From Raillietiella orientalis (lineage: Eukaryota): 64,000 bases of DNA. The DNA lies in contig JAYWIR010000107.1 in assembly GCA_036172245.1 (NCBI GenBank), positions 1-64,000 on the forward strand. Direction: 5' to 3'. The translations under genes and the position numbers were made by a program. Shown here piece after piece: positions 14,776 to 55,698 of the stretch (positions within the stretch are counted from its first letter, which is position 1; each line of letters starts with the position of its first letter). The notes beneath the pieces were generated by a model, which saw only the letters and a list, made by a program, of their open reading frames with translations, searched no databases and was not told the DNA's origin.

Positions 14776-14783
14776 GCGGTGGT

Positions 14784-20517: not shown

Positions 20518-21914
20518 GGGATCACAGTTGCTGATGGGGCCGTTGCATCCTTTGCAGGAAGCCGGCTAGCTCCTTCTGTATTCCCGGATCCAGGTGGGGC
20601 CGTAACGGCGAGCCTGCAGATAGGCACGTTCGTTACGTTCCCCGTCCCCGAATCCCGCAGGTAGGCGGTGCAGAGGGAACTGGTCGCAGAACTCCTGGAC
20701 CGACCGTTTAAAGCGGTCCCAATCCTGAAGTGTCCGCATCCTAAAGCTCCGTATAAACGTGCGGAGATGTTCCGTCGCGTCCGGGAGCTTCAGTTAGTCC
20801 CCTGGCAAACGTCACGCTGACGAGGGGGGGCCCCTGTCGCGCGGATGGATTCCAATCACGATTGGTCGATGGTCGGACAACTCGCACGGCAACTTGCAGC
20901 GCCTGTCCACACGAGTGCACAGGTGCTCGTCAAGGAACACGTGATCGATGTTGTCCTCCATTCCTGGTACACTGGTCAACAAATTACAAGTGTGCACCGC
21001 CGCGCACTCCTCGTTGACCAGGTCACGCTCGTGATTCGGTCTATCCGGTTTCAGACGAACGTTAAAATCGCCTGCAACCAGATTGCATTCCGCACGCCTG
21101 CCTCGGTCAACCAGTCGCGATGAAGGGCAAGGAAAACTTCTTTCCTGGCCCTCCTGTTCTTCAGGTCCGCTTCGCTCGGGGCGTAAACGTTCGTAACGAT
21201 CAGCTCGATCGAGTCGGACCAACTGAGAGTCAGCTGGCCGACACGACCGTGATCCTCGAACCGCACTCCATGGGCGGCAGCTTCGATGGCAGGCCAAAGC
21301 AGGAAGGCGACACCACAACTTCTCGATGTTCCACACCGATACTACAGCCGCAATCCGGAGATGCCTTCGATCTCCTGCGCTTGTTCTGCAGAGATCACAT
21401 GGATCTCCTGCAGCAGCGCAAGGTCGGACGATACTAGAATGGCGGCCATGTCTCGTCTCCCGCCGGCGTCTGTCATGCCGTTCACGTTCCAAACGGCGAT
21501 GCGCAGACGACGGCGAAAGGAGATTCCAGGCATAACTGCCGGGAAGATGACGGTGTGGGGGAACCCGCCTCTTCTGAGGCGGGTGAGATGACCATTAGGG
21601 TTTCCGCCTCCTCAGGCACCTTGGGTACCTTTCCGGCTTCACCCCCTCCATCTCCTCCGTGTCTGTGCGTGGTGGTCTCTCGATTGACGATTCCCAGGAT
21701 TCTCCCACGTTCATGGCACCCTCGCAGTTGGAAGTCATCTCCACGCCTTCGACCTCGAGAGGGGCTTTCCAGGGTTTGCTGGACTTGGTTCCAGCCTTCC
21801 GGCGGGGTGCCGCGGAGATGGAAACTTGGTTTCCGGCCTGCCCTTCGGGGTCGGAAGTTACCGACTCCTCGGTGGAGGCAGGACGCCTCACTGCCTTTTA
21901 TCCAGCCTTGGAGG
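20518..21914 (-). mobile_element. Element D (downstream part): ORF1 end, EN domain, then an internal deletion to the ORF2 C-terminal 84 nt
   Basis: MPGISFRRRLRIAVWNVNG, GDFN and SDH motifs; ...YLQARRY joins directly to PHLDPGIQKELAG...HQQL* at ~20602. Confidence 0.82.
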
Positions 21915-22131
21915 TTTACACCCGGGTACGCCCGGGGCGTTTATTTTTTAAAAAAACAACTCTACATCCGCGGTACAAGGCCCCGCTCACGGCCATATGC
22001 ACTGGACCTGCCGGGACGCCGGGACGCAGCCCATCGTAGCGTTCCTCAGCAGCGAAGGGGGATGGCGATAAAACAAAAAGAAAAATGAAAAACATAAACA
22101 GACAAAAAGAAGTTGGAGGGCAGGGAAGGGA

Positions 22132-25100
22132 TCACTGAACGCTGTGAGGAGGGCCCATCCGTTGAAGGAAGCCCTGGAGGTCCGTCCGTATATTCCCCAG
22201 TTGGGGCCATCCGGCAGCTCTCCGCATGAAGCGTTGGGCGTATGGGACGACATCCCTCGCGTGTGGACCCACTCCTTCGTTATTGGCGTCGCTCCATGCC
22301 GCCACGATGCCACGGACACAGCACAAGGCTGCGATGGCTGCGGCTGGCTGCATTGCGTCCTTCACGAAGAGGGGCCGAAGAACGTCTCTGGGGGTGCTGC
22401 CCGTAGGGAGCCCTAGGGTCGCCCCGAACCGTTCCCAGAGGGGTCGGATGGAAGCACAATCCACAATAAGGTGGGGAAGCGACTCCCGCTTCCCGCACCT
22501 GGCACACGCAGTTTCCACAGCTCCCCTCGTCCAGTGGAAGCGGCGCGCGTTGCAGGGTAGACCCCAGTGCAACAAAAGCAACGCCGACTCTTGCCACTTA
22601 AGGGGCAGGATCCTGGATTCCTTTAATACCGGGGGCCACTTCAGCACATCCGTAGGGATGGCGAGCAGCTCGCCCCATCTAATTAGTCCACGCGGCTGGA
22701 CGCTCGGGGTCGTGGCGTCCGCCAGTTCTCCTGTGGTCCAGCCGCTTAACATCTTCTCCCTGCCTGCGATCTGGCAGGTGACTTGCCACCTCGGCTTCTG
22801 GCAATCCTGAAGCGCCCTCAGGAGGTAGGGCATCGCCGTAGCAAGGGGGGTCGTCAACGCCCACCTGCGACTCCGAGGAAATTCCAGTATTTCCCGCAGG
22901 GTGCGGTTGGCGTATGGGCCGATTCGCAGGCAGTTCATGTGGTTTTCGCTCCTGCTGTTCAGCTTAGCCCATGTGCCAGCAGACTCCTCCAACCAGGCGG
23001 AGGAGTTGGAGGGGCCACAAACCATCCAACCGTTCGTCTTCGCCAAGGTTGCTATGCGTCCGAGCATAAGGCCGCATCTTCGGATCTTCCGGCCAAGGCA
23101 CAGAAGAAACGACGCGAGTCCTTCGCATCGGGACACACGCCTGGCGAGGTGGCGGGCCGAAACGAACCAAGGGGTGCTTCACATCTTCGCTGCGATGGCG
23201 AGGGTTCGCCACCGCAGCTGAATTTCCACGCGCTCCAGCGTCAGGAGGCCAAGGCCGCCGTCCCGACGCGGAGCGCACAAGTCCTGCAGAGGGACTCGGG
23301 GCCTCCCCTTGCCCCAAAGGGCGATGCGGAGGAGGTCCTTCGTCCTCTTTTTGCATTCTCTGGGGGCGGGGCATACAAAAAGCAAGGGGCGGAGGATGGA
23401 AGCCGCGAAGGCGTTCCAAACCGCGGCCCGTTCCTGCAAGTGAAACTTGCCTTCCAGGAACGGGCCGATCGCCGTCTCGACTTTTTGAAGACAGCTGGAC
23501 CACGCTTCCGCAGGGGAGTAGTCACCCAACGGCACACCAAGGTACTTGAGGCACCTCGCCGTGGGGATCCCCAGACGGACCCAGTCCTGCTGCCCTGCCC
23601 ACGCCGCACCTACTGGCACCACCGACGACTTCGCCCTGTTGACCTGCAGTCCGGTCCCACGGCTGAGCAGATCGAAGAAGTCTCCGACCGCCCTTGCCGG
23701 GGTGGACATAGGTAACAGGAGCAGAAGGTCGTCGGCATAGGCTGCTACGGCGGGCGTGCCGGGACACGAGCTAGGCAAGGAGGCCAAAGTCACCCTGTAG
23801 GCTCTCAGCACCAACTCAAAGTAGGTGCTGAAGAGCAGGGGACTCAGGCTATCTCCCTGCCTGATGCCCCGCCGCACCGGCACGCCATGGACCTTCTGAC
23901 CTCTGAAAGAGACGGAAATTATCGCATGGCGCCAGCAGGAGCGCAGGTAGTTGATCAAGGAGGTTGGGAAGCCCATGCGACCCAGGAGCTCCAACAAAAG
24001 CCCCTGGTCAACACAGTCGAACGCCTTATGGAGATCGACTGCGAGCGCTAAGGCCCCCTTCCCCGCTCGGGAGTCCATTCCCTGCCCTGCTGGCGGCCCC
24101 AAAGTGGGGTTGCCGATTTTTCCTTTCCCTTCCTTTTGACACCTCTGCGCGTGCATCCACGTGCTCGCGAAGGAGAGGTTGGCATCCATACTTCGCCCGG
24201 GAACAGCATATGTCTGCTCCGGGCTAATAATGGATTCTGCCACCTGCCCCAGACGCGAAGCCCATAGCCCGGCAACCAACTTGGCGTCCGTATTCACAAT
24301 CGTGATCGGACGCCAGTTGTTCAAATTCCTAAGGTCTCCCCCTTTCGGAAGGAGCCTCACTCTGGCTGACCGAAACGAGGCGGGAACATCGCCTTCGTCT
24401 CGGATCAGCCTTGTCAGCTGAAGCAGCAGGGGTGCCAGCTCTTCCGCGAAGCTCTGATAGAACTCCGCGGGCAAGCCGTCTTCCCCTGGAGCTTTCCGCC
24501 TCTTGAGCCTTTTGATACCGGCGAGAATTTCGCCGGTCGTAAAAGGCTCATCGAGGCTTAACGACACCTCCTCCCCTATTGCCGGGGCACCATCCGGCAG
24601 CAAGAGCCGAGAGGCATCTTGATCCGGGGGCGCCCTGGCGTAAAGGAAGGAATAATAGCTCCGCACGAGATGCCGTACCGACGCCGGGGACGAACATTCC
24701 CGGCCCTGGTCGTCCAGCAAGCTGGCCGACCCGGATTGCCAGGCTTGGCGTTTGGCCCCGGCGCGGTACTCGGCCAGGCGACGGACATTAGGGGTTCGCT
24801 CGTACCTACGGGCCTGTAAATAGGCCCGATGGTTGCGAGGACCCTCGCCGAATCCGGAGGGCAGGCGGTCCAGGGGGAACTGCTCGCAGAATTCCCGGAC
24901 CGATTCCTTAAAAAGGTCCCAGTCTTGGAGATTCCGGAGCGTGACGCCTCTCAGGTATTCGCGAAGGTGTTCCTTCGCAACTGAGAGTCGCGTCCAGTCC
25001 CCCGGCAGACGCCAGTCTCTGGATGGCGGTCCTTTGTCGCGAGGCCGCACCTCGAAAATTAACCGGGAATGGTCCGACAACGTGGACGCAACCCTCCCCC

Positions 25101-25268
25101 GTTTGCCGACCCGTGAACACAGGTCAGCGTCGAGGAAGACGTGGTCGATGCTGCGGACCATTCCCCTCTCACCCGCGAACAAGTTGCGCGCACGCATGGC
25201 GGCGCACAACTCGTTCATCGCGTTCACCTGTGTTTCCGGCTCACCTGTTAGCAAGCGGAGATTGAAAT
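22132..25268 (-). pseudogene. ORF2 of element E (EN C-half, RT, Zn motif); one stop near 23179
   Basis: ORFs 23179..25275 and 22132..23136 contain SDH, WRPIT, VDLHKAFD, GIRQGDSLSP, YADD and CARCGKRESLPHLIVDC. Confidence 0.9.
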
Positions 25269-25581
25269 TTATCACCCGGTCACGCCGGGGCGTTTATTAA
25301 TAATAATAAACTGGTCAGGGACAATGTCCCCAACCAAGAGAACGACAGAGAACATAGAAAAATTACCGGCACGCAGGCCTGGTAAACAAACCGCTCGCAG
25401 CGTGGGGGGAATGAGGGGAAACAAACAAAAATCAAAAACTGGAGGGAAGGGAAAAGGGTTTTTGGTTAGGCTCCGTACTCACGGGGATTTATACGATGAG
25501 CACCTAAAATGTTCCGGAGCCTATGGGGACCCGGGTGTAAAAAGAAAATACAAATTTAGTTTATGGAGGGTAGGGCAATGA

Positions 25582-28500
25582 TCACCGGGTTGGCCGCTGA
25601 TGAGGGTGTGTAAACCGGCGGTGTATTGCGGCGAGATTCCTCTTTGTCTCCTCTGTCAAATGAGGCCATCTAGCGGATGCTCCCATGTAGAAGGATGCTT
25701 TGCTGATTACCTCCTGGTGCTGTCCGTTGATTGCCAACGCCTGGCGGACGGAAACTATCGCGCGTATGCAACCGATGGTTGCAATCCTTGCGCTTAGTGA
25801 AAGCCCGCTCGGCGTGAAGAATCGTCGCAGCAAGTCTCTTGCGGTGTCCACGGGATGCAATAGTGCTGTTGCCAGCCTACGCCACAGTCCTTGTAGGACA
25901 CCGCAGTCCAGAAGTAGGTGCGGAATCGACTCCGTCGATCCGCACCGAACGCAGTTCGCAGACGCATGTCCCCCGGAGTCACGATGCCAACGCTCGTTGC
26001 ACTGAAAACCCCAGTGAACGAAAAGCAGCACGGCTTCTTTCCAAGCAAGGGGGAGCAGCGAACTGTCCATACACTGTGGAGGGACTACAAGTTCTTCGGG
26101 GGTGACAGCAAGTTCTTCTGCCCACCGGAGGAGTCCCTTTGCAGTAACACGAGGAGAGGCGGCGTCCGCCAACTCACTTGTCTTCCAGGTGCCAAGGAGT
26201 TTGGTTCTTCCCGCTATCGTGCAGGAAACCTCCCACCTCGCCGGTTGGTAACTGTCGTTTCTTGCCCTGAGGGCAGACAGCGCTGCGGCAAGAGGCGTGG
26301 CAGCCAGGGTAGAGAACTTCACCTCGTCCTGCAGTACTTCTTCCAAGGATCGTGGAAAAAATTGGCGCAGGGGGCGAAGATCTTCAGGGCGTATTCCTTG
26401 GAACGCCGCCCAGGATTCAACAGACTCCTGCCGCCAAGCTTCAAAGTTCATTGGGCGGCAGGAGATCCAAGAGTGTGCTTCCAGAAGTGCGGTCAACTGA
26501 CGAAATGGAAAACCGAAACCCCGCTTCCTGTATTGAGTGCCCGGCAAAAGCGAGAGAAATCCTCCGCTGCCGGCGCATCTCCGCAGGAGAATGCGAGCTG
26601 GCACACACAGGGGGGATGTCCATAGCTGGGCACACAGTGCCAGCAGTCGGAACTGCACCTGCAGTCCGATTCGCTCCATTGTAAGGATACCCAAACCAGC
26701 ATCCCGACGCGGAGCTCACAAATCTTTAAGGCGGATCCTGGATCTCGCCGGACCCCAGAGAGCGTTCCTGAGCAGGCGCTTAGCCCGCTGTTTTGCCGCA
26801 TAGGGGGGGTCCAAAACAAAAAACAGGGGACGGAGGAGGGGGCCACAAAGGTGTTCCAAATAGTCGCCCGTTCCTGCAAGGTAAACTTGCCGTTAAAGAA
26901 CGGGCTGATGGCCAACTCTGCTTTCTGAAGACAGTCCGCCCACGCTTCGGCTGCGCCGAAAGCGCTTAACGGAACGCCAAGGTACTTAAAGTACCCGCCC
27001 GTGGGGATCCCCAGGCGGATCCAGTCGGACTGCCCCTCCCACGACGTACCCACAGGAACGACCACGCTCTTCTCTCTGTTCACGCTCACGCCCGCTCCCC
27101 GACGAATCAGGTCGAAGAAATCCTCGACACTGGACGCCAGGGTGGACATGGGGAGCAGAAGAAGCAGGTCATCAGCGTAGGCGGCCACGGCAGGAGTTCC
27201 CGGGCAGGAGCTTGGCAAGTGAGAGAGCGTCAGCCTGTATGCTCTTAGCACCAACTCAAAGAAGATGCTGAAGAGCAACGGGCTTAAGCTGTCGCCCTGT
27301 CGGATGCCCCTACGAACGGGAATACCATACACGCGGCAGCCGCTAAAAGTGATGCAGGTTAGCGCGTGGCGCCAGCACGCGTGCAAATACAGCAGGAGTT
27401 GCGCCGGGAACCCAAGGCGTTCCATAAGCTCCAAAAGCAGCTTCTGGTTTACGCAGTCGAACGCCTTGTGGAGATCGACCGTGACCGCCAAGGCACCTGG
27501 CGATCACTCCTGCCGTCGGCGCCTGTTCTTTTTGCCTGCGGCAGTGACTTTCGCAGCAGCCTGGCTTTGCTGCGCCACAACTTCCTGCAGCTGCATCCAT
27601 GTACGCGCGAAAAGGATGTTCGCCTCCATGGATCGTCCCGGAACCGCGTAGGTTTGTTCCGGGCTCACCACAGATTCCGCTATTCTTCCTAACCGCGCGA
27701 CCCACAGCTTGGAAAACAACTTGACGTCCGAGTTCACCAAGGTGATCGGACGCCAGTTGTTACGTTGGCGCAAGTCTCCGCCTTTCGGCAGGAGACGCAC
27801 CTTCGCTGAGCGGAAGGAATCAGGGACATTCCCGGATTCACTCATCAGCGTCGCGAGTTTAAGCATCAAGGGAATGAGCTCCACTGCAAAGCACTGATAA
27901 AACTCTGCAGGGAGCCCATCCTTGCCTGGCGCCTTTCGTCTCTTCAGCCCAGCGATGGCGGACGAAAATTCATCCGCCGTGAAGGGCTCGTCGAGACGTT
28001 CGCGTTCCTCCTCGCCGACAACACGAGCATCCTGAGACAGGAGTATCTCAGAAAGAATATCCTCCGTCGGGGATTCCGCGTAGAGCGAGGAGTAGTAGCG
28101 TCTCACAATGCGGCGTACTTCGGCTGGGGCCGAACATTCCTGGCCCTTGTCGTCCAACAGGCATGCTGCTCCGGACTGCCAGACCTGGCGCTCGGCCCTC
28201 GCCTTGTACTCTGCGAGACGCCCGACATCCGCGCGTCTCAAAAACGTGCGGGCCTGCAGAAAGTCTCTACTGTTGGCCACGCCCTCTCCGAAACCGCGTG
28301 GAAGCCGCTGCAAGGGGAATTGGCAACACAACTCGCGGACAGATTTTCTGAGATCGTCCCAGTCCGCAAGTTCTTGGATGGCAAAGCCCCGGAAGTATCC
28401 ACGTAGATTCTCCGCAGCCTCCGGTTGGCTAAGCCAATCCGCCTGCATCCTCCAGCTTTGCAACGGAGGCCCCCTGCCTGGCGGAAGGATCTCAAACTCC

Positions 28501-29174
28501 AACCTGTGGTGGTCAGAAAGCTCAGTCAACAATCTTCCTCTCCTACCCACACGCGAATGCAGGTTTTCATCGAAGAAAACGTGATCGAGCGATCTTTCCA
28601 TTCCAGGTTCGCTGACCATCAAGTTGGCGGCGTGCACGGACGCGCACATCTCGATGGGCAGCGCGCGCTCCCTCGGGCGACTCCAATCGTCGGAGAGCAG
28701 GCGGACGTTGAAGTCCCCAGCGACGAGGTGCGCCACTTGGAAGCCGGAGTTGTTGAGCCACTGGCTCTGCACCTCACCAAAGAAAGCTACTCTTTCTTCG
28801 AGGTAGCGAGAGCCACTCGGCGCGTAGACGTTCGTAACGACGAGATCGATGGACTCGGACCACTTGATGACAAGCTGGCCTATCCGTCCGTTGTCATCGA
28901 AACGAACACTACGCACCGCTTCCGCCATTTTTCCTCTTACGAGGAACGCGACGCCGCACGTGTGTACGCCGCCGCACCGCCAATGTAGCGTTCCGCCTGC
29001 GCGCTCCTCGATTTCGGCTGCCTGCTCGTCGGAGATTACGTGAATCTCCTGCAGCAGCGCGAGGTCGAAGGGGCGCAGGGCGTTGGCTACTAATCGCCTC
29101 TTCTCGTCGTTCTGCAGTCCGTTCACGTTCCAACACGTTACGGACAGACGACGAGAAGACGCGATTCCCCGCAT
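25582..29174 (-). pseudogene. ORF2 of element F (APE-RT-Zn), frameshifted near 27500 and 26830
   Basis: ORFs 27504..29174, 26493..27491 and 25582..26694 give consecutive EN, RT (YADD) and C-terminal parts. Confidence 0.9.
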
Positions 29175-31096
29175 TACTGCTGGGAAGGTGGCGGCTTTTT
29201 GCTCGCTTTATCCGGCGAGCAGACGGCGAGCAGCACGACTGGCTTGAGGGGACGGTCGCCACCGTCCTCTGTCGTGCTGCATGCATGTAATGCCTCCACG
29301 CCAGGCTGAACCCCGTCGGGTTTCGTGGAGACTTCGCGTTGCTTCGCGGCGAGCGTTGCCTGGCTGCCTACTTTTGATCGGCGCGCACACGCTTTCGAAC
29401 GAGTTGTCCTCGTCTCGGTGATCGGAACGGCATCCATTTCGGAGTCCGACCGGCGCATGTTCGATCGGGTTTCGGCCTTCCGCGAAGCAGTGACAGGTTC
29501 TTCTAGATTGACAGCTGTCCTGTTTTCGTTTTCCGTCACCAGAGCATCGCTTTTGGTGACGGCTGCTTTCCCGGCGCGCGCGTTTTCAGCGTGCTCACGC
29601 GCAGTTGCACGAGGGACCTTTGCTGAAGTCTTCTTTACTTCATTACGGTACCTCACTCCGCGTGGCGCCGTAAATGGAGATTGTGCTCCATGGCCATCTT
29701 TGAAGTCATCCGCGTCTTTAAACGGGAGCACTTTCGATGGCTCCGACACGCTCGTCATGGACGCTGCTTTCGGAAGGGCTTTTAATCCCTTCGTTGGCAT
29801 GGCATCCGCGCCAGTCGAGAGCTTGCTCTCCGACTGCGACGGCGTGAGATTTTTCTCCGCTCTCGCGGTGTTGGATCGCGACGCGGATTTTTTTTTGCCG
29901 ACTTTCGAAGTCGACACGGCACAACCCTTCTTACCCGATTTGGGCTTCTCAGCCACTGCAGGAGGTGAAGGGATGGATCTGACGGTACTGGAAGTGTCCT
30001 TACCGCCGTTGTCCATTGGCGTCCCCGCCGGTTGCTCGAACTCCGAGAGAGCCGGGCGTGCTTGGGAAGGACAGCTATTGCGCCTAGGGGGACTTACGAT
30101 TGCCCCGGATTCCCCGCACCCTTTCTTTTGCGGCTCCCCTGCCGCGAGAGGGGGTGCGCAGGGCTTCGCGTGCGAGGTTTCCTGCTGCTTTGGGGCGACA
30201 TTCCGCCTCGCGTTTTTACCGAATTTCTGCAGTGGGGTCTCCAGGTTGTTCGCAGATTTTTTCTTTTTATCCGCGCTTTGTTTTTTAAAATGGAGCTCCG
30301 CGGCTGCCTTTTTTCGCAAAAGTTCCGGGCAATTTTTCAATTGGTGCCCGGATAGTTTGCAATAACGGCATTTTCCAGAGGGGCATTTATCCAAACAATG
30401 CCCCTCCTTCCCGCATTGCTCGCACGTTTTTACTTTGCCCACGAACCACAGGTGAACGACCGTGTCTTTCACCTGTAGTTTGGGGGGCAGCAGACGGCGG
30501 TCCGGCATTGTAAGCCGGACTCCAGCGACTCCGCTGTGTATGGACGGGAAGTCCTTGAGGTTGCTACGCACCCTCCACCGCGCATGGACCGTGGCGAATT
30601 TCGCCAACGCGTTCCGAATATCAGTATCGGAGATTTCCGACTCGATGTCGAAAATCTCCACCACAAATGAGTCGTCCATGGCGGCCGGGAAGACCTTCTG
30701 GCCACGGATCGACAACGGGGTGCGCAGTAAGCGTTGCACAAGTGCAGCGTCTTTGCAACGCACCTTGAAATAGCCCATGTCTTTTACGGGCATAATGGCA
30801 AGAAGGTCCTCCTCCCGCACGCCAACACGGGTCAGTTCATCGTTGAACTGATTCCCTTCGCGCGCAGAAAGAAAACCACTCACCTTATATCGGAGAGCAG
30901 GTCTATAGCCTTGGGCTACGTATGCCCGCAACTCCGACTCGTCGAGTGGTTTCCCTTTGACGGCTGCTGTGGCAGCAACGTCAGCACAACTCCTCTCCAT
31001 TGGCGAGAAAGACGAAGTGGAGGCGGCCGTCGGTTCCGCGATTGCAGATCCGGATGCTGTTCCTCCAACTTCAGTAGCTTCAAGTTGTGTCGACAT
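29174..31096 (-). CDS. ORF1 of element F: gag-like nucleic-acid-binding protein with two CCHC knuckles; open
   Basis: CEQCGKEGHCLDKC and CRYCKLSGHQLKNC; first ATG at 31096; stop overlaps the ORF2 ATG (TAATG). Confidence 0.88.
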   Translation of the reverse strand: MSTQLEATEVGGTASGSAIAEPTAASTSSFSPMERSCADVAATAAVKGKPLDESELRAYVAQGYRPALRYKVSGFLSAREGNQFNDELTRVGVREEDLLAIMPVKDMGYFKVRCKDAALVQRLLRTPLSIRGQKVFPAAMDDSFVVEIFDIESEISDTDIRNALAKFATVHARWRVRSNLKDFPSIHSGVAGVRLTMPDRRLLPPKLQVKDTVVHLWFVGKVKTCEQCGKEGHCLDKCPSGKCRYCKLSGHQLKNCPELLRKKAAAELHFKKQSADKKKKSANNLETPLQKFGKNARRNVAPKQQETSHAKPCAPPLAAGEPQKKGCGESGAIVSPPRRNSCPSQARPALSEFEQPAGTPMDNGGKDTSSTVRSIPSPPAVAEKPKSGKKGCAVSTSKVGKKKSASRSNTARAEKNLTPSQSESKLSTGADAMPTKGLKALPKAASMTSVSEPSKVLPFKDADDFKDGHGAQSPFTAPRGVRYRNEVKKTSAKVPRATAREHAENARAGKAAVTKSDALVTENENRTAVNLEEPVTASRKAETRSNMRRSDSEMDAVPITETRTTRSKACARRSKVGSQATLAAKQREVSTKPDGVQPGVEALHACSTTEDGGDRPLKPVVLLAVCSPDKASKKPPPSQQ

Positions 31097-31642
31097 CGTC
31101 GTCAAAATGTACGACGCCAAGATGAAGCGGATGAAAGCACGGAGACGAGAGCGAAGAAAAACACGTCCGCACTCGATTGAAATCTCCCGCTATCAGGTGA
31201 GCCTTCCGCACGCTCGTGTTCGCCAGCCAGTCGCGCTTCAGGGATTCAAGCAGCCTGGTACGGTTGCTGTAACCCTTTTGATCGGTTGGGGCGTACACAT
31301 TCGTGACGCTCAGATCGATCGAGTCGGACCAGCCGAGAGTCAGCTGACCGACCCGACCGTCGTCATCGAAGCGCACGCCCTTCACGGCAGCGTCGATGGC
31401 CGGCTTCACGAAGAACGCGACCCCGCAGGTGTTGCGGATGCCGCATTGCCAGTACAGCCGACCCCCCGCGATCGTCTCGATCTCCTGGACGTCGGCCGCG
31501 GTGATCACGTGGATCTCCTGCAACAGGGCCAGGTCGAACTCCCGCAGGGTGTCGGCTGTATCTCGCCTGTTACCGTCGTCGCGCAGCCCGTTGACATTCC
31601 AACAGGCCGCGCGAATCCGACGGCGACTGGCGAGCCCAGGTG

Positions 31643-33393
31643 TTACTCCTGGGAAGATGGCAGTGCGGCGTCCGCCACCTGCTGGGGCGGGACGCTAGGT
31701 GGAGCAGGGGGGTCAGGTGCTGAAGGCACCTGGTCCCCCTCCTCCATCGGTGCCGGCGCGTCGGCCGGATCACCCGCAGGTGGAGTCGCGCCTACCTGTT
31801 CGCCCTCCTCCATGGGGGCGGGCTGTTCAGGGTCGGCGCCTGCAGGGGGGACTTCACCCCCCTGTTCACCCTCCTCCATGGGGATGGCCGCATCGACGGC
31901 TTCCGAGCGTGGGAATTCCTCCTCCGAATTTCCCACGCTGGCGACGGCTTCCGTCTTCTCCTCCTCGCTGGTGGAGGGGAGGCGCCTCCTGGGCTTCTGG
32001 GACTTGCGTCCCGACTTCCTGGGGGTGCCTCCGAGGAGGAGGATGTGCTTCCGGCCCCCAGGTCTAACTCACCTTTGGGGGCCTTCCTCGCCGGAGCCGG
32101 CCTTCGCACGGCCTTGCGCGAGGGGTTCTCACGCTCGGCCAGCGTGACCGCGAGCTCCTCCGCCGCCTGCGCGAATGCGGCGTCCGCGGCTTCGACCGCC
32201 GCTATGTCGCGCGGCTCACCCTCTGTGTAAACAGAGGGTTCGCCGTCGCGAGCCTCGGGCGCAGCGGAAACGGCAAGGGGAGGATCGACGCTCCGGGTGG
32301 CAAACTCGGGAACGACGATTCGTTCCAGTGCCACCGTGCACTCGCGCAGAGTTTTCGAGCGCGGACCGGGTTTTTTCGGCTTACCGGCCGTCTTGCGCTC
32401 TTTGCTCTCCGCGGGTGGGAGTTTCCTCGGCTTTCTGGCCTCTACAAGCTGCCATCCCTCTTCGCCTTCCACCGTTTCAGAAGGTTTATCCTCCGGCTTA
32501 CGCGCCGGAGGTTGAGGTGTTGGCTGCTTGTGCTGGCCCTTTTCTACTTTAGGTCTAGAGACCTTTGAAGCACGTTTCCCCTGCGCTTTTTTCGCGGCAG
32601 GGGGAACCGGGGTGGGGCGTTTGGGACACACGCGCCGAACGTGGCCCCGCTCCCCGCACAAATGGCATTGTATATTGGGACACCGTTTACGTAGGTGTCC
32701 CACGGTATCACAATGCCCGCAATACCGGGGCTTCCCTACATACCACAGGTCGACGTTTTCTTGCGCCACCTGTAGTTTGTGGGGAAGCCCACAAGTCTCC
32801 CGTACGGTGACCCGCGCTGCAGCCTGCCCACCAAAAAGGCTATCGAAGCCGTCGAAAATGGAGGGTTTCGGCCACAGTGCGTGCACCTCACCGTACTTTC
32901 TCAATTCCTCACCAACCGCTGACCGCGTCATGCGGCTGGTGATGCCAGTCATGTGGACCACCACGGAGCGGTCCATGGATACTGGCAGGATCTTTCGGCC
33001 GTCTACGTTCAGCGGCGCATGGATAAGGCGGTGAGCCAAGGTGACATCTTTGCAGACCACCTCGACCCGCTGCTTGCCGCTGAGGACGGAGAGGCCGTCT
33101 AGATGCTTCTCTGTGACATTCGCGTCCTTCAACGCTTTGCTGAAGGCGCGCGCTGTCCGGCCGTCGAACAAGTTGCCTACCTGGTAGACAAGCGAAGGCT
33201 TGTACCCGGAGGCCTTGTATGCGGCCATCTCCGCCATGGCTTCTGTGCTGGGCGCGGCCACCATGGCGCTCAATGTCCTCGGCGTGGCCGGGGATGATTC
33301 CGGGGCGACTGCCCCTGCTCCAGTAGGCTGTGGGGGCGAACTAGCCTCCCCCACTCCCACCTCCATCGCGGTGTCCTCTGGCGTCGTGACCAT
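31643..33393 (-). pseudogene. ORF1 of element E (one frameshift in the C-terminal low-complexity part)
   Basis: MVTTPEDTAMEV..., CGHCDTVGHLRKRC and CHLCGERGHVRRVC; the C-terminus continues in ORF 31643..31936. Confidence 0.85.
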
Positions 33394-33486
33394 TGGACAC
33401 CGACGATGTACACAAAACACCACACAGAAGAAAAAGCGCTTTTCTACTACTCTTTGGGGAGTGAAGGAAAAACACGTCCTCCTACT

Positions 33487-34925
33487 AGCCTTGGAGGGGG
33501 CTGGCTGCAACGATGCAGCTAGCTCCTCCGCCGCACACTCAAAGGCGGCGTCATCGATCACGGTCTCGATGACGGACGCTTCCGCCGGTTCGTTCCTCAC
33601 GCTGTTGACATTTTCAACAGTGTGTTGCTCGTCGTTAGCTACGATTTCTACCTTGCGGCGTTCGGCGAGGACGCGTTCCACGACGACGCTGCATTCTTTT
33701 AAATTCTCGCTAACCTGCTCTTTTTTATTTTGGTAGGCGAGCTTTTTTTCAATTCGTCGTTCTTTCTTCGTCTTTTTCTTTTCCGCTGTAGCTTCTCGCC
33801 ATTCCGACACCTGACCGCTTTTGTCGATCTTTTCGGCATTCGTTGCCGCAGTGTCGGCTGAGGCCTGGACCACGGGAGTGGGTGGCACAGCGTGAGCCGC
33901 AGCCTTTGCAGCTAGCCTTTTCTGTAGCAGCCGCGCGCGTTTTTTTAGGTACCTCGCGGAAGCCACGCGCACAGCGGATTGTTGACACACTTCCTTCGTG
34001 TGGCCCATTGTCCCGCATACCTGGCACTGTACGTTGGGGCACGTCCTTTTGAGGTGTCCCGACGTGTTGCAGAAGCCACAGTATTTGGGCTTCCCCACGT
34101 ACCAGAGGTCGACGCTTTCTCCGCCGACCACCAGTTTGTGGGGAAGGGTAGAGCCCTACCGAACGGTTGCACGGGCAGCCGTGAGGCCGCACTGAACAGT
34201 GGTATAGTCCTTGAAAGGACTAGGCTTGGTCCATACTGTATGGATTGTGCCTTCCTTTCCCAACGCGGCGCGTAACTGTTCTTACCGCATCCGCGCGGAA
34301 ACTCCTAAAAGGTGGACCACCATACTGTGGTCCGCCTTAACGGGAAGGAGCTAGCGTGTCCCCATTACCACTGGGGTTTTAAGCAGACCTTGGGCCAGAT
34401 CTGCATGTTTGTAGATCACCTCTACGTACTGCCCCCCGCTACGAATGGAAATAGCGCAGAGCTCCTCTTCTTTAACATCGATAGTGCGCATCCCTTTCGA
34501 GAAGGCGCGCGCACTCTCAGCAGAATACAAATTTCCTACCTTGTAGAATAGTGATGGGTCATACCCCTCTTCCACATAGGCAGATAATTCCGCCGCGGCT
34601 GCAGGCGATGGCGCCGACACGACGGCGCTCCACGCCCGCGATGCTGCGGGGACCGGTTTTGTATGGGGCGGACGCCCCCACCTCCTTCGCCACGGAAGGC
34701 GACGTTGCCGCCGTCCCCTGGCACTCCACCTTTTCTAGAGGCGACGTTGCAGCCGCCACCTGGCACTCCATTTCTTCAGAAGGCGACGTTGCCACCGTCC
34801 CCTGACACGTACTGGTGGTCGCGTCAGGCATTGCTGCCTGATCGACCACCACCACACACGAAGATTACACCTAGGGACGGTTCCCTGCACGAGGAGCACC
34901 GAGAAAACACGTCCGCTCTAGCCGA
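33487..34925 (-). mobile_element. Element D (upstream part): subfamily I 5' end and ORF1 N-terminal two-thirds
   Basis: AELSAYVEEGYDPSLFYKVG, CGFCNTSGHLKRTC; GGACGTGTTTT at 34914-34904; continues at 21914 across the TSD. Confidence 0.9.
34690..34806 (-). repeat. Three 42-nt coding repeats (CQxxxATSP, 14-aa period) near the D ORF1 start
   Basis: ggcgacgttgc recurs at ~34698, 34740 and 34782; A and C appear to carry one unit. Confidence 0.8.
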
Positions 34926-37032
34926 CATAAAGCTTTCGACTGCGTCGACCAGGAACTCCTTCTGGAGCTCCTGGAACACTTGGGATTCCCGGCCTCATTA
35001 GTGGCCTATCTGCGCTCCTGCTGGCGCGACACGCTCATCAACGTTACTTTCAGCGGGCAGACCGTGCACGGCATACCGGTGCGACGCGGCATACGGCAGG
35101 GAGACAGCCTGAGCCCCTTGCTCTTCAGTACCTACTTCGAGCTGATAATGAGAGCGTACAGGGTAACTCTAGCGCACCTCCCTTGCAACTATCCCGGTAC
35201 GCCCGCGGTGTCAGCAAATGCGGACGACCTTCTTCTGCTCCTCCTTATGTCCATCCCGGCATCGGCGGTCGAGGAGTACTTCGACCTGCTGCATCGGGGA
35301 ACAGGACTTACGGTGAACAGTGTGAAGTCGTCCGTGATGCTAGTTGGTGCGACGTGGGCAGGGCAGCAGGACTGGGTCGGTTTGGGGATCCTCACGGTGA
35401 GGTACTTTCAGTAACTCGGCGTACCGATGGGGGATTATCTTCCTTCGGATGCGTGGTCCAGCTGCCTTCAAAAGGTAGGGACGGCGATCGGCCCGTTCCG
35501 AGGCCGCAGGTTTTTCCTGCCTAAACGGGCCGCGGTTTGGAACATGTTCGCGGCTCCTCTCCTCCGCCTCCTGCTTTTGTTTGTCTCACTACAGAGAGGA
35601 TTAAAAAGCGGAGAAAGGACCTCCTCCGTATCGCCCTTTGGGGCAACCGGAGTGCCCGAGTACGCGTAAAGGACTTGTGCGCTGCTCGTCGGGACGGTGA
35701 CGTGGGCCTCCTGACGCTGGTGCGGCTCCAGCTTCAGCTCCAGTTCCGAATGTCGGCACTTGTTCCAGAGTTGTGGTGCACGTGTTGGTGCGTCGCTGCA
35801 AGCCTCCATCTCCAGCAAGCCACCGGCAAGACGGGACTGACGTCGTTTCTTGCACTCCGTCGCCGCGTCAATCGATGCGGACTCCAGCTACGGAGGGTGG
35901 CTTCGCTGTCACGGAAAAACCCAGTATTGGTCACCTGTCGCTCATTCAACGGTAGTGCCTGGTTGCAGGAAGCCGTTCGAACGTGGGGACAGTTCGGCTT
36001 GCAACGCTTTCAACAGGAACGAAGGTTCCTGTTCCAGGGTTACAGAAGTTGCACGCTTCGCGAGATCCTGGAGAACCCAAAGAAGAGAGCGTGGGCAGGG
36101 AGAACCCCCCTCGCTGCTGCGCTGCCCTCCCTGATGGAAGATCTGAACAGCGATGTTTCGGCGAAGTGGGAGGTTTCAGTTACAATCTTCGGGAAGGAGA
36201 AGTAGATAGGAGAGTGGAAGACAGGTCAGCTGACTGACGCTGCCACCGCGGGAACGCCTCCCAATGGACTTCTTCGCTGGGGCGCGCTGTTCGATGTTCC
36301 CATTGAACATCTAAAGTGGCCCCCGGTGCTCATGAACACTTCCGCCCTCCCCTTAAAATGGCAGGAGTCGGCTCTCCTGTTGCAGCACTGGGGACTCCCC
36401 TGCAACGCCCGCCGACACCACTGGACCTGGGGAGCGGTGGACCCCAATTGCGTCAGGTGTGGGGAACGGGAGTCCCTCCCCCACCTGCTAGTGGATTGTT
36501 TTGCCTTTCGGCCCCTTTGGTTTCGCTTTGCTGCGGTCATCGGAATCTTCTGCGGCAACCCCAGGGACGCACTGAAAGCCTTCTTTGTTGCCGACGCCCT
36601 TCGGCCCGCGGCCTCGTTAGCAGCTTTGTGCTGCCTACGCGGGCCCGTCACCGCCTGGAGCAAGGCAACGGGAGGAAAACGCATCCAGGGAGCCATCCAG
36701 CCAGCCTACCAATTCCTGAGGAAGGCGTCCTTATGGCCCCACCTGGATCCAGGAATACAGAAGGAGCTTGCCGGCATCCTGCAAAGGATGCAACGGCTCC
36801 ACCAACAACTGTGATCCCTTCCCTTACCCTCCCAACTTTTCTTTTCTTTTTTGTGTTGTTTTTTGTTTTTCCCACTTCCCCCTGCTGCCGTGGTGGACCG
36901 TACCGGTCTGTGAACCGGTGACCCGGCAGGCTCTGCGTTTGTTCGTGCGTGGCTGGAGCAATGGTCCAGCCACTGCACGTCATTGTAAATGTTTATTAAA
37001 CAATACACGCCCCGGCGAAATGAGGGTGAAAA
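34926..37032 (+). mobile_element. Element L: 3' half of a LINE from HKAFD to the 3' terminus, decayed
   Basis: GIRQGDSLSP, NADDLL, CVRCGERESLPHLLVDC; degenerate terminal motif AATACACGCCCCGGCGAAATGAGGGTG at 37002-37028. Confidence 0.88.
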
Positions 37033-40000
37033 TCGAACGCTTTATGAAGATCAGCTGCGATCGCTAGGGCACCCATACCCGTTCGGCTCTCCCCACCCTG
37101 ACCAGCGCTCACCCTTTAATTGGGGTAGCCGAGAGATCCCTTGCGTTCTTGATTTCCTTGTTGCGCATGGAACCATGTGCGGGCGAGGAACAGGTTAGAC
37201 TCCATACTTCGCCCGGGAACAGTGGATGTCTGTTCCGGGCTAATTATGGATTCGGCTACCTGTTCGAGCCGCGCAGCCCACAGTTTCGCCACCAACTTGA
37301 CGTCCGTATTCACGACAGTGATCGGACGCCAGTTGATTAGCTTACGGAGGTCTCCTCCCTTAGGAAGGAGCCTCATCCTAGCTGACCGGAACGAGGCGGG
37401 AACATCGCCTTCTTTCCGGATCAGCTGTGTCGATCTGTGCACCAAATGGGTTAACTCTGCCGCGAAGCCTTGAAAAAACTCCGCGGGCAGGCCGTCCTCC
37501 CATAGTTCATTCCTCCTCTTGAGCCCTTTCATCGCGGTGACGATTTCACCGGTTGTAAAATGCTCGTCAAGGCTTTCTTTCTCTTCCTCTCCTATGACCG
37601 GGGCTCCTTCCGGGAGCAACAGTCGCGAGGCGTCCTGCTCGGGAGGCGCCCTGTCATACAGGGAGGAATAAAATTTTCTCATAATGTGTCGAATCGCTGA
37701 CGGGGCCGAGTGTTCGCGGTCTTGGTCGTCCAGCAGGGTGGGCGGCCCGGAGTGCCAAGCTTGGCGCTCAGCCCCGGCTCGGTAGTCGGCCAGGCGACGG
37801 ACGTTGGGGGTTCTCGCGTAACGACGTGCGTATGGAAAAGCCCTTTCGTTGCGAGTCCCTTCCTCCAACCCGGAGGGTAGGCGCCCCAGGGGAAACTCCT
37901 CACAGAACTCGCGGACCGAACGCTCGAAAACGTCCCAATCCTCGAGATTCCGGTGGGTGACGCCTCTCAGGAATTGGCGAAGATGATCCGCCTCACCTGG
38001 GAGCCTCGTCCAATCTCCCGGTAGACGCCACGCCCTGGATGGGGGTCCCTTATTGCGTGGCCAGACATCGATCATCAGACGGAAATGGTCGGACAGCGTC
38101 GACAGGAGCCTTCCTCGTATACCGACACGAGTAGACATGTCGTGGTCGAGGAAGACGTGGTAGATGCTGTTCTCCATTCCCGGGTGTCCCTCCATCAAGT
38201 TGCGCGCGCGCATGGCGGAGCACAACTCGATCGGCACGTTGTTTTGAGTGCAGCACGCACCTGAGAGCAAGCAGATGTTAAAGTCCCCGGCTATCAGGTG
38301 GGCCTTGCGCACTCCTGCATCCGTCAGCCAGTCGCGCTTCAGGTACTGGAAGAACTGAGTTCTTCCTGCGTACCCTTTGCTGCCGCTCGGAGCATACACG
38401 TTCGTAACGATGAGATCGATCGTGTCAGACCAGCATAGTCATCTGTCCAACACGACCGTTGTCATCGAAGCGTACGTTCCTCACGGAGGCGTCGACGGCT
38501 GGCTTCAGGAAGAACGCGACACCGCAGGTGTTACGGTCGCCGCATCGCCAATACAACCGAAACCCTGCGATCCTCTCGATCTCCTCGACTTCTCTTGCAG
38601 TGATCACGTGGATCTCCTGCAAAAGCGCCAGGTCGAATTCTCGCAGGGTGTCAGCTGTATCTAGCCTGTTGCCGTCGTTGCGCAGCCCGTTGACATTCCA
38701 ACAGGCAACGCGGATCCTTCGGCGACAGGCGAGCCCAGGGGTTATTCCTGGGAACGTGGCAGTGCGGTTCCCGTCACCTTATCGGGCGGGACGGATGGAG
38801 GAGGGGGTGCATCGCGCTCCAGTTCTTCCTCCTCCATCGAGGCCGATTCGGATACAGGCCTCATCGCGGTGGGCAGGCAGGTATCTCCTACCTGCGCTCC
38901 CTGCTACATGAGGTACAATTCGCCGGCTGGGACGGTCGGTGGAAGTAGGAGGTTGTCACCTACCTGCTCCCCCTCCTCCATCGGGGTTGACAGCTGCTCG
39001 GTCGCGGGGAGTGGAATATTAGCTCCCTCCGTTACCGCGCTGTCGGCTCCCCCTCCGGCTGCCGGTGCGTCCTCATTCTCGTTCTTTGTCGGGAGTCGCT
39101 TCCTAGGATTCTTGGACTTGCGTTCCGTCTTCTTTGGAGGCGCCTCCGCGGAGAAGGACGCACTACCGGCATCCGGATCAGTATCACCTTCTTCAGGTGC
39201 CTTCACCGCGGCCGGCCTTCTCAAGGCTTTTCGCGCGAAAATCTCGTGGCCGACAAGTGCAGCCTCGAGCTCTTCCGCCGCCTGCTCGGAGGCGGCGTCC
39301 TCGATTACGGACAGCGCGTCGTAAGGCTCCACCTCTGTTGTCAGAGAGGGTTCTCCTTCGGTGATCGCGGCTTCCACGCAAACGAGGCGGGGGATGTCTT
39401 CCCCGGTGGTGACCTCTAAGGCCTCCACGCGCTCCAAAGTGACCGAGCTTCCGCGGAGTAGTGCGTGGCGCTCTCTCCTATTCAGAGGTTTCGCCGCTGG
39501 CTTCGCTTTCGTGGCTACGGTTTGCTTTGGTTTCTTTTGCTTCACCGTCCGCCAACCTTCCTCATCAGCGCAGTCGGGAGTTTTCTCGACCGGCGTTTGC
39601 TGAGAGGTTTCGAGGCCTGGCTTCTGGCTACGCCTTGCTGTAGCCTCCTTTGGATCCGAAGTTTTATCCGCGCGTGTCACCTGAGCTTTCTTCAAAGCGG
39701 GGCGACCCAAAGTTACGCGCTTTGGGCACACTTTCCGGAGGTAGTCCTTTTCTCCGCACGAGAAACACTAGATGTGGGGGCACCGTTTTTTCAGATGCCC
39801 TGTCGCATCGCAGTGTCCACAGAACTTGGATTTCCCCACGTACCAGATATCGACCTTTTCGTTGGCGATGTCTAGCTTGTGGGGTAACGAACCGTTCTCA
39901 TGCACGGTTACACGCGCTGCGGCCATGACACTAAACAGCCTTCCATAGGACTGTAAGACGTTGGGCTTGCTCCAAAGCGCGTGAACCGTGCCGAACTTGC

Positions 40001-40648
40001 TGAGTTCCTCCTACACGCCCTCCGTCGACATGCGGAGGGTAACTCCCGTGAGGTGTGCCACTACCGAGCGGTCCTCAGTTACAGGGAAGAGCTTTCTGCC
40101 TTCAAGCGTAATAAAGGTGTTTAGCAGGCGTCGAGCCAGGCTTGCATCCTTACAAGTCAACTCCACCCGCTGACCACCGCTTAACACTGAAAGACCTTCC
40201 AACTCTTCTTCTTTAACATTAAGCCGCTGCAACTCCCTCTCAAAGTTGCGAGCGGTATTTCCAACAAAGATATTGCCAACCTTATAGATGAGGTACGGCT
40301 TGTACCCTTGTTCTTTATAGGCTGTTTGTTCGGCCATGGCATCAGCGGATGGTGCTGCAGCCAATGCGCTTTAAGTCCTCATCGTTGCCGAGGATGGCTC
40401 CGAGGACACGCTTGCACGCTTTTTCAAGGGAAACGATGACCTCGCCTCTGTGTAGGCAATCGCCCGCTCCACCATGAGCTGGGGAGAGGCACTAGCCTCT
40501 CCTACTCCAATCTCCATCGCGGTGTCCACTGGCATTTCTGCCATGGGACACCGACGATGGGCCACACACTCTCTCAAACGGAAAGAAATAAAGGAGACTT
40601 CCCAAGCTGAAGCGGTAAGAGTGCAGGATAAACACGTCCAAACAGTTG
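37033..40648 (-). mobile_element. Element G: 5' half of a subfamily II-like LINE, ending exactly at ADLHKAFD
   Basis: GGACGTGTTT at 40639; MAAAPSADAMAEQTAY; EN motifs; ORF 37116..38399; manual translation of 37115-37033 gives GALAIAADLHKAFD. Confidence 0.88.
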
Positions 40649-41707
40649 CACGAGAAAGGTCGTGTGGGTCAACTTGTCCTCAAGTGGTCCGAATCGATCG
40701 AACTGGTCGTAACGAACATCTACGCGCCTAGCGGCGGCCGGCATAACGCCCAGCAACTCGCATTCCTGGGTGGCCTGCGCAGCCGCTGGCTCGCCGACTC
40801 CGGCCCTAACGTGGCGCACTTCCTTACAGGAGACTTAAACGTCCACCTGCTAGCAGAGGAGAGATGCCGCTTGAGGGAGAAGCAACTGGTGAGCGAGGTA
40901 TGCTCTTCCGTGCGCGTGCAAAACTTGCTTACTGGTGCGCCCGGGGTGGAGAGATCGCCGTACCATGCGTTTCTCGATGAACACCTGCTTTCATGAGTAG
41001 GTCGGAGAAGGCGCCTGCTGTCCGCGATTTCGGATCATCGGAGACTGGAGTTCGAGCTCCTCCCGCCTGGCAAAGGGCCTCCGATGAATGTCTGGAGGCT
41101 GCCAGCCGACTGGATTAGCAATTCGGAGGCTGCGGAGCATCTTCTTCATCACCTCCGGGGCTTCGTCATCCGTGAACTCGAGGACTGGGACGATCTGAAA
41201 GAAACGGTCCGCGAGTTCTGCTGCCCTTTCCCCTTGCACCTGCTTCTCCGCGGCTTCGGGAAGGGTGTCGCGAATAGCAGAAACTTTCTGCAGGCGCGTA
41301 CCTTCTCTCGATGCCCAGACGTCCGGCGTTTGGCGGAGTACAAGGTCAGAGCCGAGCGCCAGGTTTGGCACTCTGAAGCGGCTTGTCTGCTCGATCACGC
41401 TGGCCAGGAATGCTCGGCTGCAGCCGACGTACACCGCGTAGTCAAGTTTTTCTACTCCTCGTTGTACGCGGAGGAGCTCACGGAACGCAGTCTCTCCGAG
41501 CTGCTTCTTCCGACGGGCAACCCTGCTATCGATGAGGAGGAGCGCGCCAGATTGGATTGGCCCTTCACGGCGGAGGAAGTATCTTCCTCCATAGAGGGCC
41601 CGAAGAGGCGTGAGGCGCCTGGGGAGGATGGCCTGCCCGCGGAGTTCTTTCAGTGCTTCGCGGCGGAGCTCGTCATCCTGACGCTAAGCCTTTCCTCGCT
41701 GATGCGT
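40649..41707 (+). pseudogene. Element J: internal ORF2 fragment (EN to RT start) of a subfamily III LINE
   Basis: GRVGQLVLKWSESIELVVTNIYAP, GDLN, PGEDGLPAEF; cut by G on the left and H on the right. Confidence 0.85.
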
Positions 41708-51880: not shown

Positions 51881-52485
51881 TTACCGCACCCCTCGTAGGA
51901 CTTGGGGAAAACTGCCGAGTCGGCGATGGAGCGACTGCATGCAGCGTGCTTTTGCTCGTCGCGACGCTGCTTTTTACGGCTTTCGTGGCCTTTGCAGAGG
52001 GGCCTGCGCTGCAGTTGGGCTGTCCGGAACTCGGAAGGGAGAACGGAACGGGGCAATAAGTCTTCGCACTGTTGCGATCTTCCTGTTTTCCTACCTTTCC
52101 CTCCATGGTGTTACGCAGATTTCCTGGTTCCTGGCTCGGAGAGGTGCCTGAGTGTTCGGCAGCGAGGGAGTGCACGGCACGCGTCAAATCCTCGCGCCCC
52201 TTTTTAATTGGCTTCCCCGCCGTGACTTCCCCCTTTCGCGACGTTGCGGGCGGGGATGCTTTCTTTTCATCCGCGGATCGCTCGTTTTTTTTTGCCTAGT
52301 TTTTGCAAACGACGTTTTCTATTGCATCCAGTGGCTTGCTCCTCCACACTATCCTGTGTACTCACCATGTTGTACTATGCTACTTGGCAGATACCACAGG
52401 AACACACAAGTGCAAGCTAAAACGCAGGCACAAAGTTGCCCGATCGTTGGCGCCGATGGACGCGCAAACACGTCTGCACTGTACG
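51881..52485 (-). mobile_element. Element H/K upstream part: 5' end plus mid-ORF1 (knuckle region apparently deleted)
   Basis: AGACGTGTTT at 52475-52466; LQKLGKKNERS...GKPIKKG resembles F ORF1 LQKFGKNARR...GEPQKKG. Confidence 0.7.
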
Positions 52486-55621: not shown

Positions 55622-55698
55622 TCCGCCAACGCCTGTCTGGGAAGCAACCGGAGTTTTTTTAGTGTAGTCAGGTGTTAAGTGTGGGTTGTCGGTGTCCG

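Follow-up and report, generated by a model that had tools for sequence, protein, structure and literature searches.

Why should the 5' ends of one kind of retrotransposon lie, time after time, against the same codon of a reverse transcriptase (RT) that reads in the opposite direction? Could such joins be the traces of an element that lands in the catalytic core of its own relatives? These questions are raised by a 64,000-nucleotide stretch of the Raillietiella orientalis genome (contig JAYWIR010000107.1, positions 1 to 64,000 of the forward strand; hereafter the window). A preliminary description of it had proposed that a subfamily of long interspersed nuclear elements (LINEs), subfamily I, targets the RT motif HKAFD of sibling LINEs. 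We mapped the LINE pieces of this single 64-kb window by blastn against a reference copy, by tblastn and by inspection of the junctions; element names such as I_A, beta, gamma and X are labels coined in this analysis. LINE pieces fill bases 1-1087 and 13072-64000, with a GC content of 55-65%, as against 41-49% in the 12-kb stretch between the two blocks. The region from 13072 to 64000 is best explained by repeated insertion of tail-less, GC-rich, Tx1-like LINEs into one another, which built up a nest. Within it, we assign a probability of roughly 55% to the reading that I-type LINEs integrate site-preferentially, in antisense, at the HKAFD codons of related LINEs.

All three I-type 5' ends in the window abut codon H422 or K423 of an antisense second open reading frame (ORF2), at the positions that the preliminary description had pointed to. 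At junction D (34925|34926) a LINE 5' end, that of element I_D, occupies the left side in reverse complement (...GAAAACACGTCCGCTCTAGCCGA), and the right side opens on the plus strand with CAT AAA GCT TTC GAC TGC, encoding HKAFDC. From the first base of this H422 codon the RT 3' half, piece d (34926..37032, plus strand), continues to a LINE 3' end at 37032. At junction C (16896|16897) a minus-strand RT 3' half, piece a (14778..16896, from the first base of the H422 codon to the 3' end), opens with CAC AAG GCG GTC GAA TGC, or HKAVEC, and is met by the plus-strand 5' end (CGCTCTAGTGCGGACGTGTTTTC) of I_C (16897..18808), which runs from its complete 5' end to about residue 110 of the endonuclease (EN). 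Both junctions are exact to the nucleotide. Junction A (865-869) has the same architecture in degraded form. Here the LINE 5' part is I_A (1..868, minus strand), which has its 5' end at about 865-868 and extends beyond the window start; over the first 600 nt it matches I_C and I_D at 74-81% identity, and its 5' motif carries a 10-nt deletion. The RT that it faces (869..1081, plus strand, K423 to about aa495) opens at the K codon (CAG GCG TTC TAC), some 3-4 nt further in, and after 73 codons gives way to AT-rich DNA. This fragment is decayed: tblastn gives 45% identity over 73 aa, and its nucleotide identity to all other copies is 56-65%, while the others share 65-84% among themselves. A fourth junction, L (37032|37033), shows the opposite end of an element. 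Past the LINE 3' end (...GAGGGTGAAAA) comes TCGAACGCTTTATGAAGATCAGC, which encodes ADLHKAFD on the opposite strand.

Are these borders true element ends? The 5' motif GGACGTGTNTTT occurs 10 times in the window against 0.99 matches expected, and the 3' motif AATAAACGNCCCGG 9 times against 1.3, an excess which indicates that the ends named at first reading are real element termini. Nine complete LINE 5' ends, in both orientations, are present. The conserved 5' terminus reads ..GCGGACGTGTTTTYC, with the motif in the form GGACGTGTTTT. The 3' terminus is tail-less (AATAAACGYCCCGG..GGGTG..AA); no poly(A) is found at LINE 3' ends, which read ...CCCGGGTG..AA.

Did the joins arise more than once? In maximum-likelihood trees of the RT 3' region, piece a groups with beta and piece d with another minus-strand copy, h, both with support of 100/100. 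Pairwise identities are 78.5% for a and beta (2133 nt), 74.5% for d and h (2110 nt) and 69.5% for a and d (1388 nt). Between a and d the synonymous divergence (dS) is 1.28, and the ratio of nonsynonymous to synonymous divergence (dN/dS) is 0.29 over 619 codons, within the range of 0.15-0.37 seen across all other pairs of independent copies. On the other side of the joins, I_C and I_D differ by a dS of 0.545 with a dN/dS of 0.27 over 297 codons. Disabling changes are few: a has no stop and four frame-shifting indel runs, d two stops and three private frame-shifting runs, giving a load per copy of about 2-5 per 1.9 kb, to be set against 30% divergence between copies. To judge by these codon comparisons, a and d diverged under purifying selection. 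The dS of 1.28 on the RT side against 0.545 on the I side, together with purifying selection on both, points to living lineages and to joins made more than once. The supposition that the host copies were independent is thereby borne out, since they belong to different RT clades and host and insert are not congruent. The same figures support I_C and I_D as distinct active lineages.

Junction L adds a second side to the picture. In the minus-strand element beta, whose RT is uninterrupted through HKAFD and served as our reference, nucleotides 24017-25224 align with 37033-38240 and nucleotides 23205-24030 with 35750-34926. One alignment starts at 24017 and the other ends at 24030, so the two broken pieces share 14 nt (24017-24030). 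Right of junction L lies piece e (37033..40645, minus strand), which extends from a complete 5' end through ORF1 and EN to ...ADLHKAFD (aa426) and ends in the 14-mer CATAAAGCGTTCGA. Pieces a and e lie on the same strand and have this 14-mer in common; e is sister to beta with support of 89/89 (region aa147-421), as a is with 100/100 in the 3' region. The 20-kb block between them has a plus-strand 5' end (I_C) at its left and a plus-strand 3' end (d) at its right, as expected from one antisense insertion. Taken together, the sequences fit a single host, X, of which a reads as the 3' half and e as the 5' half, split by a plus-strand insert with a 14-bp target duplication. A target duplication of about this length had been predicted from junction L, and the 14-nt overlap does act like one.

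The inferred length matches that of duplications checked against uninterrupted homologs. Beta (3' part 21915..25268, 5' part 31175..33484) lies in ORF1 of I_D in sense orientation, flanked by a 13-bp duplication, CCTCCAAGGCT[A/G]G, that has one mismatch (I_C being the uninterrupted reference). Gamma (25269..31174, minus strand), a full-length LINE, is nested in sense in beta, within the codons of the endonuclease motif GDFN, and its 9-bp duplication ATTTCAATC (25260-25268 and 31175-31183) has none. Mismatches grow with nesting depth, from 0/9 for gamma through 1/13 for beta to 3/14 for X, which fits the inferred order of events. Gamma's position in GDFN is another insertion into a catalytic motif.

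To which subfamily does the 3' end at junction L belong? I_D retains a remnant, nu (20518..20601, minus strand), made up of the last ~25 codons of its ORF2 (from aa1030), the stop and 4 more nt. Nu and the C-terminus of d agree at 78 of 84 nt (92.9%); in the same 84-nt stretch other pairs reach 42-74% (a-beta 74%, d-h 69%, gamma-kappa 42%). The match indicates that d carries an I-type 3' region and that junction L is an I-type 3' junction, in agreement with the subfamily first ascribed to it. Three other ways of assembling these pieces were rejected. Pieces e and d are not one element with an inverted 3' part, as d is sister to h and e to beta. Piece e does not share a host with mu, a neighbouring piece of the gamma/kappa clade. 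A repeat unit of antisense RT plus I positions 1..1440 with fixed ends fails because I_C extends past 1440, the apparent end being the insertion of beta into I_D.

From these relations we infer a history for bases 13072-40645. The beta-like element X would have been resident on the minus strand when a subfamily-I element, Y (now I_C ... d), inserted into it in antisense. Y would have nicked the sense strand of X at TTCGA^C and the antisense strand at TTRTG^, duplicating the 14-bp HKAFD-coding sequence CATAAAGCNTTCGA. Y would then have been entered in antisense by another I-type element, Z, whose 5' junction fell on the same nucleotide. We identify Z with I_D, which has an internal deletion of aa165-1029; its first part (33485..34925, minus strand) begins with the complete 5' end at 34925 and stops at I-position 1440, and its second (20602..21914, minus strand), from about position 1440 to ORF2 aa164, holds one copy of beta's 13-bp duplication and is joined directly to nu. 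Next, mu (18809..20517, minus strand; a 5'-truncated LINE from aa587 to the 3' end) would have been primed at GAGAT^ in the EN of Y and joined just past the stop codon of Z, with a target deletion of ~1.9 kb that took Z's 3' junction. Large deletions accompanying LINE insertion are known for L1. Beta and then gamma would have followed in sense orientation with ordinary target duplications, and a third I-type 5' end, I_A, would have come to lie at the same codon of an older RT elsewhere in the window.

How specific is the preference? A number of observations weigh against it, and we gather them here. Five of the nine HKAFD sites in the window (those of beta, gamma, kappa, f and h) are intact. 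There is one 3' junction at HKAFD, and the loss of that of Z to the insertion of mu is an assumption. A single event (16896|16897 with 37032|37033, 14 bp) thus has its two junctions at the site, the 3' side of I_A falling beyond the window. Junctions C, D and L all lie within one nest, which leaves effectively two independent HKAFD loci. The 14-mer copies of X mismatch at 3 of 14 positions and e is further from beta (dS 0.71-0.90) than a is (0.53), figures that make the pairing of a and e compatible with the data rather than proven. The 93% match of nu and d would also fit an origin of I_D and d from one RNA by twin priming; by our own estimate the 6 mismatches favour ~5% over 13% divergence with a likelihood ratio of about 3, which is not decisive. 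The RT of these LINEs switches templates often. No consensus appears among seven first-strand and six second-strand break contexts, and the lack of one among the first-strand nicks leaves endonuclease specificity unsupported. Finally, antisense junctions gather in at least three neighbourhoods, HKAFD being one.

The second of these neighbourhoods is again exact. Pieces f (52634..55573, minus strand, with a 954-aa open frame; GFGKG) and h (58253..61169, minus strand; GFGEG) both open at the first base of the G147 codon of the GFGEG motif and run to their 3' ends. They are different lineages (dS 1.0-1.3), and each stands head-to-head with a complete beta-type 5' end: f with g (55594..58252, plus strand, complete 5' end to aa123), h with i (61170..64000, plus strand, running off the window end). 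In g, priming at ATCTCCA^ set the 3' end of h 72 nt upstream of the G147 position. A third neighbourhood is found in EN at about aa150, where the 5' junction of X in lambda (40646..41706, plus strand) and the 3' junction of f in I_E are 26 nt apart in homologous EN coordinates. Lambda is an ORF2 fragment from EN aa~150 to aa307, head-to-head with the 5' end of X and cut by the 3' end of kappa. I_E (52473..52633, plus strand) is an I-type EN fragment, 75.6% identical to I_D 21392-21235, that ends where the 3' end of f starts. Beta, which is close to g (dS 0.29), inserted elsewhere with a normal target duplication. The recurrence at G147, together with this placement of beta, means that exact recurrence is not by itself proof of element-encoded specificity. 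What stands of a site-specific LINE aimed at the conserved RT motif of its siblings is therefore the set of recurrent, independent junctions; the strict form of that proposal is weakened by the other hot spots, the lack of a nick consensus and the five intact sites.

Might the clustering be due to chance? In 2,000,000 simulations, six 5' junctions, each made by a complete LINE 5' end, were scattered at random along an element of 5667 nt. At least three adjacent gaps of no more than 4 nt occur with P ~1e-6 if the junctions are taken as independent; when junctions of one nest are merged, leaving 4 independent loci, the probability that any two of them fall within 4 nt is 0.009. For eleven antisense junctions, at least five adjacent gaps of no more than 30 nt have P = 5e-5. 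Of ten LINE-in-LINE insertions counted from the map, eight are antisense (binomial P = 0.055).

Several simple causes of the hot spots were considered and set aside. The break contexts compared share no endonuclease motif. By eye, the junctions show no microhomology at zero offset, and a 10/15 match of I_C at a 1-nt offset is not repeated in I_D. The palindrome AAAGCTTT occurs in d and not in a, e or beta. Nucleotide conservation does step up at H422, from a mean pairwise value of 0.67 in the 20 nt upstream to 0.86 in the 20 nt downstream; the codon sits at the 5' border of a block that ranks 39th among 3864 windows and counts among the best conserved in the nucleotide sequence of ORF2. Strong conservation would account for the hot spot at H422 but does not explain all of them, G147 ranking about 1024th of 3864.

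Site choice could lie with the endonuclease or the ribonucleoprotein, or with pairing of the incoming LINE RNA or complementary DNA (cDNA) to a homologous antisense copy. A wider scheme, which we put forward only tentatively, would have each subfamily home to a fixed ORF2 site of rival or sibling LINEs, always in antisense: I-type elements to HKAFD and a beta-type sublineage to GFGEG at G147, with a third site in EN. Each arrival would inactivate a competitor and help to build LINE-only nests, perhaps guided by pairing. That siblings are disabled on arrival, as was suggested at the outset, would hold if the hosts were still active when struck.

Could the joins instead have formed without any host being split? 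A full-length I cDNA might meet, 3' end to 3' end through template jumps, a LINE cDNA that had stopped at H422 at a pause or a cut RNA end; the recurrent position would then mark a stop of reverse transcription and not a DNA cut. Six of the seven antisense 5'-truncated pieces (the RT at junction A, a, d, f, h and lambda) do indeed meet a complete LINE 5' end head-on, and the seventh, kappa (41707-45571, minus strand), faces the 5' end of a second family, B, across ~780 nt that include a copy of U4 small nuclear RNA (snRNA). Signs of template switching abound. The ORF2 of I_D passes from aa164 to aa1030..stop (nu) and on to aa587 of mu, a copy of another clade, through two non-homologous joins on one strand, and the likeness of nu and d would suit an origin from one RNA. 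The 3' end of a is followed on its own strand, after ~6-9 nt (14770-14780), by P (13072..14773, minus strand), a LINE 5' part that opens with a complete 5' end and reaches ORF1 aa585. A full-length U4 snRNA (46216-46352, plus strand; Rfam RF00015, 83.3 bits, model 1-138 of 138) stands directly 5' of LINE B (46353 to ~51890) on the same strand, either as a template-jump chimera or as the mark of a LINE that inserts immediately downstream of U4 genes. At the f/g junction (55575-55614) a 19-nt inverted copy of the 5' terminus of g (55575-55593) lies 3 nt from the original (GCGACCAAAAGACACGTCC / GGACGTGTCTTTTGGTCGC) and looks like snap-back synthesis at an RNA end.

We nevertheless consider cDNA joining, though the chief rival, an unlikely source of the HKAFD junctions. 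It would make it a coincidence that junction L falls within 14 nt of the truncation point of d, and it does not account for the fact that a and e both group with beta on either side of a block with the polarity of a single insertion. The partners come from different lineages: h and i have a proportion of synonymous differences (pS) of 0.77 over 33 shared codons, g is at dS 0.29 from beta where f is at 1.1, and a is beta-like while I_C is I-type. The first two of these comparisons exclude twin priming from the same RNA at the G147 junctions. The site also tracks the subfamily of the partner (I with H422 in 3 of 3 cases, g and i with G147), which a generic pause would not do.

Against the site-preference reading one may also hold that the nest echoes a single event. 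A first insertion at HKAFD would have left inverted arms bordered at H422, and later breaks, recombination or insertion-linked deletions would have reused that border, with junction A coincidental. C, D and L do share one nest, as do both G147 junctions; after the insertion of Y the RT halves a and d form inverted repeats ending at H422; and successive nested positions are homologous in both chains (H422, H422; G147, aa123, G147). The arms, however, are only ~70% identical, poor material for pairing; at junction A the same codon is hit at a separate locus (P ~0.009 among 4 loci); and one subfamily takes part in all three junctions. We judge this explanation quite improbable.

Still less credible, and in our view very improbable, is a single ancestral composite of an I 5' end and an antisense RT, multiplied by segmental duplication or by retrotransposition of the whole. 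An alignment does cross the junction (16028-17055 with 35793-34766, 70.8% identity), and I_A and I_C have the terminal nucleotides GCTYTAG in common. The RT sides are not sisters, though, since a goes with beta and d with h; their dN/dS is that of independent copies; the dS of the two sides is unequal; and the few disabling changes per copy do not go with 30% divergence. That the inverted joins are assembly artefacts of a highly repetitive region is barely worth entertaining, as no long shared repeat lies at the junctions, the joined LINE 5' end and RT have no relation to each other, nested insertions have exact target duplications, and the same join recurs in three diverged copies.

What else does the window hold? 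The join of a to P is a head-to-tail tandem with no recognisable target DNA. The 5' leader of I_D, unlike I_C and I_A, holds a 42-bp tandem repeat of 2.3 copies (34695-34792). Long intact frames occur in family B (a 1207-aa ORF2 with EN and RT, 48086-51709, plus strand), a second, intact LINE family that may still be active, and in f (954 aa, 52889-55753, minus strand). Inside the AT-rich stretch (~1082-13071), an RT fragment of a different, AT-rich retroelement (PF00078, E 1.7e-10) at 2980-3345 on the minus strand indicates that this 12-kb DNA is not simply unique. At each of its borders (1081-1090 and 13066-13075) a LINE piece is broken off on its 3' side (the RT fragment at aa495, P at ORF1 aa585), which points to a deletion or rearrangement.

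Where do these LINEs belong? ORF1 has a CCHC knuckle, and ORF2 combines an APE-type endonuclease with an RT and a weak zf-RVT match. PF03372 and PF00078 are both found in gamma (E 3.3e-13 and 5.6e-05), kappa and family B; PF13966 (zf-RVT) scores 25.6 bits in f, under the curated cut-off of 27.5, and is present in many homologs of the f ORF2. Of 8000 candidates searched with that ORF2 protein, 223 scored E <= 0.001. The closest ones that carry a name are, by similarity, Tx1-type at 27-31% identity (Xenopus TX1 149 kDa protein 29%, Danio pol-like protein 27%). The one close relative in the database is a metagenome protein (P0001), 65% identical to the ORF2 of f; it is uninterrupted across DLRKAFD and uninformative on junctions. 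Of the 120 metagenome loci listed for the 5' motif, none showed similarity to the LINEs in protein or nucleotide sequence.

If the preference is real, the architecture bears on how LINEs integrate. The choice of the second strand, and with it of the 5' junction, is the least understood step of LINE integration, and the exact recurrence seen here is on the 5'-junction side; this family would then offer a natural system for studying that choice. Head-to-head LINEs are a known outcome of twin priming, the 5' inversion of L1 reportedly described by Ostertag and Kazazian in 2001. Like twin-primed L1 copies, our pairs set a complete inverted 5' end against a 5'-truncated 3' piece. Unlike them, they consist of pieces from different lineages in at least three of four testable pairs (a/I_C, f/g and h/i), their break position recurs, and a host appears split with a target duplication. 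Head-to-head LINE architecture could therefore arise without twin priming on the same RNA.

Another known class of composite is the U6/L1 chimera formed by template switching of the RT. For chimeras of snRNA and LINE, the SINEU heads treated in PMC4494074 offer a comparison. In likeness to these, our full-length U4 is fused in sense to the 5' end of LINE B, a fusion which suggests that jumps from the template 5' end occur in this genome. A jump of that kind adds sense sequence, and an antisense RT beginning at a fixed codon is not explained by it alone.

Is there a precedent for a LINE that strikes other LINEs in their catalytic core? Among open-access papers, judged by title and the start of the abstract, we found none in which a LINE is said to have the RT motif of other LINEs as its target. 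Other transposons are known targets of the Tx1 clade, and PMC4494074 lists Tx1L in the piggyBac-type Tx1D, Tx1-Mar in Mariner-N4_AMi, Tx1-8_Crp and Tx1-4_AMi in long terminal repeat (LTR) retrotransposons, and Tx1-9_AMi in Harbinger elements. With these the present LINEs share the APE-type endonuclease, the RT and an ORF1 with a CCHC knuckle, and also another transposon as the preferred landing place, at a fixed position. They differ in that the target is a related LINE, their own subfamily included, hit in antisense in the codons of the RT catalytic motif; the preference is non-exclusive and without an endonuclease consensus, and the relation to Tx1 is one of similarity. If the preference is real, the known Tx1-like target range of small-RNA genes, microsatellites and unrelated transposons would gain the catalytic core of related LINEs. 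Such a site would be a safe haven, harmless to the host genome, and landing there could also eliminate competitors, a conflict of transposon against transposon fought with single-nucleotide precision. It would further provide a concrete mechanism for the growth of LINE-only, possibly centromere-like, clusters.

Clusters of this kind are known from green algae, where, as PMC3446292 and PMC8226300 describe, Zepp and ZeppL insert into existing copies to form nested GC-rich clusters, one per chromosome. As with Zepp, the LINEs of our window pile up in their own kind, and the cluster is richer in GC than its surroundings (55-65% against 41-49% here, 61% against 53% in Coccomyxa). Zepp arrays, as described there, consist mostly of 5'-truncated 3' ends in tandem, whereas many copies here are full-length. 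In further contrast to that description, the insertions seen here are mostly antisense (8/10), lack poly(A), and have junction positions that recur to the nucleotide.

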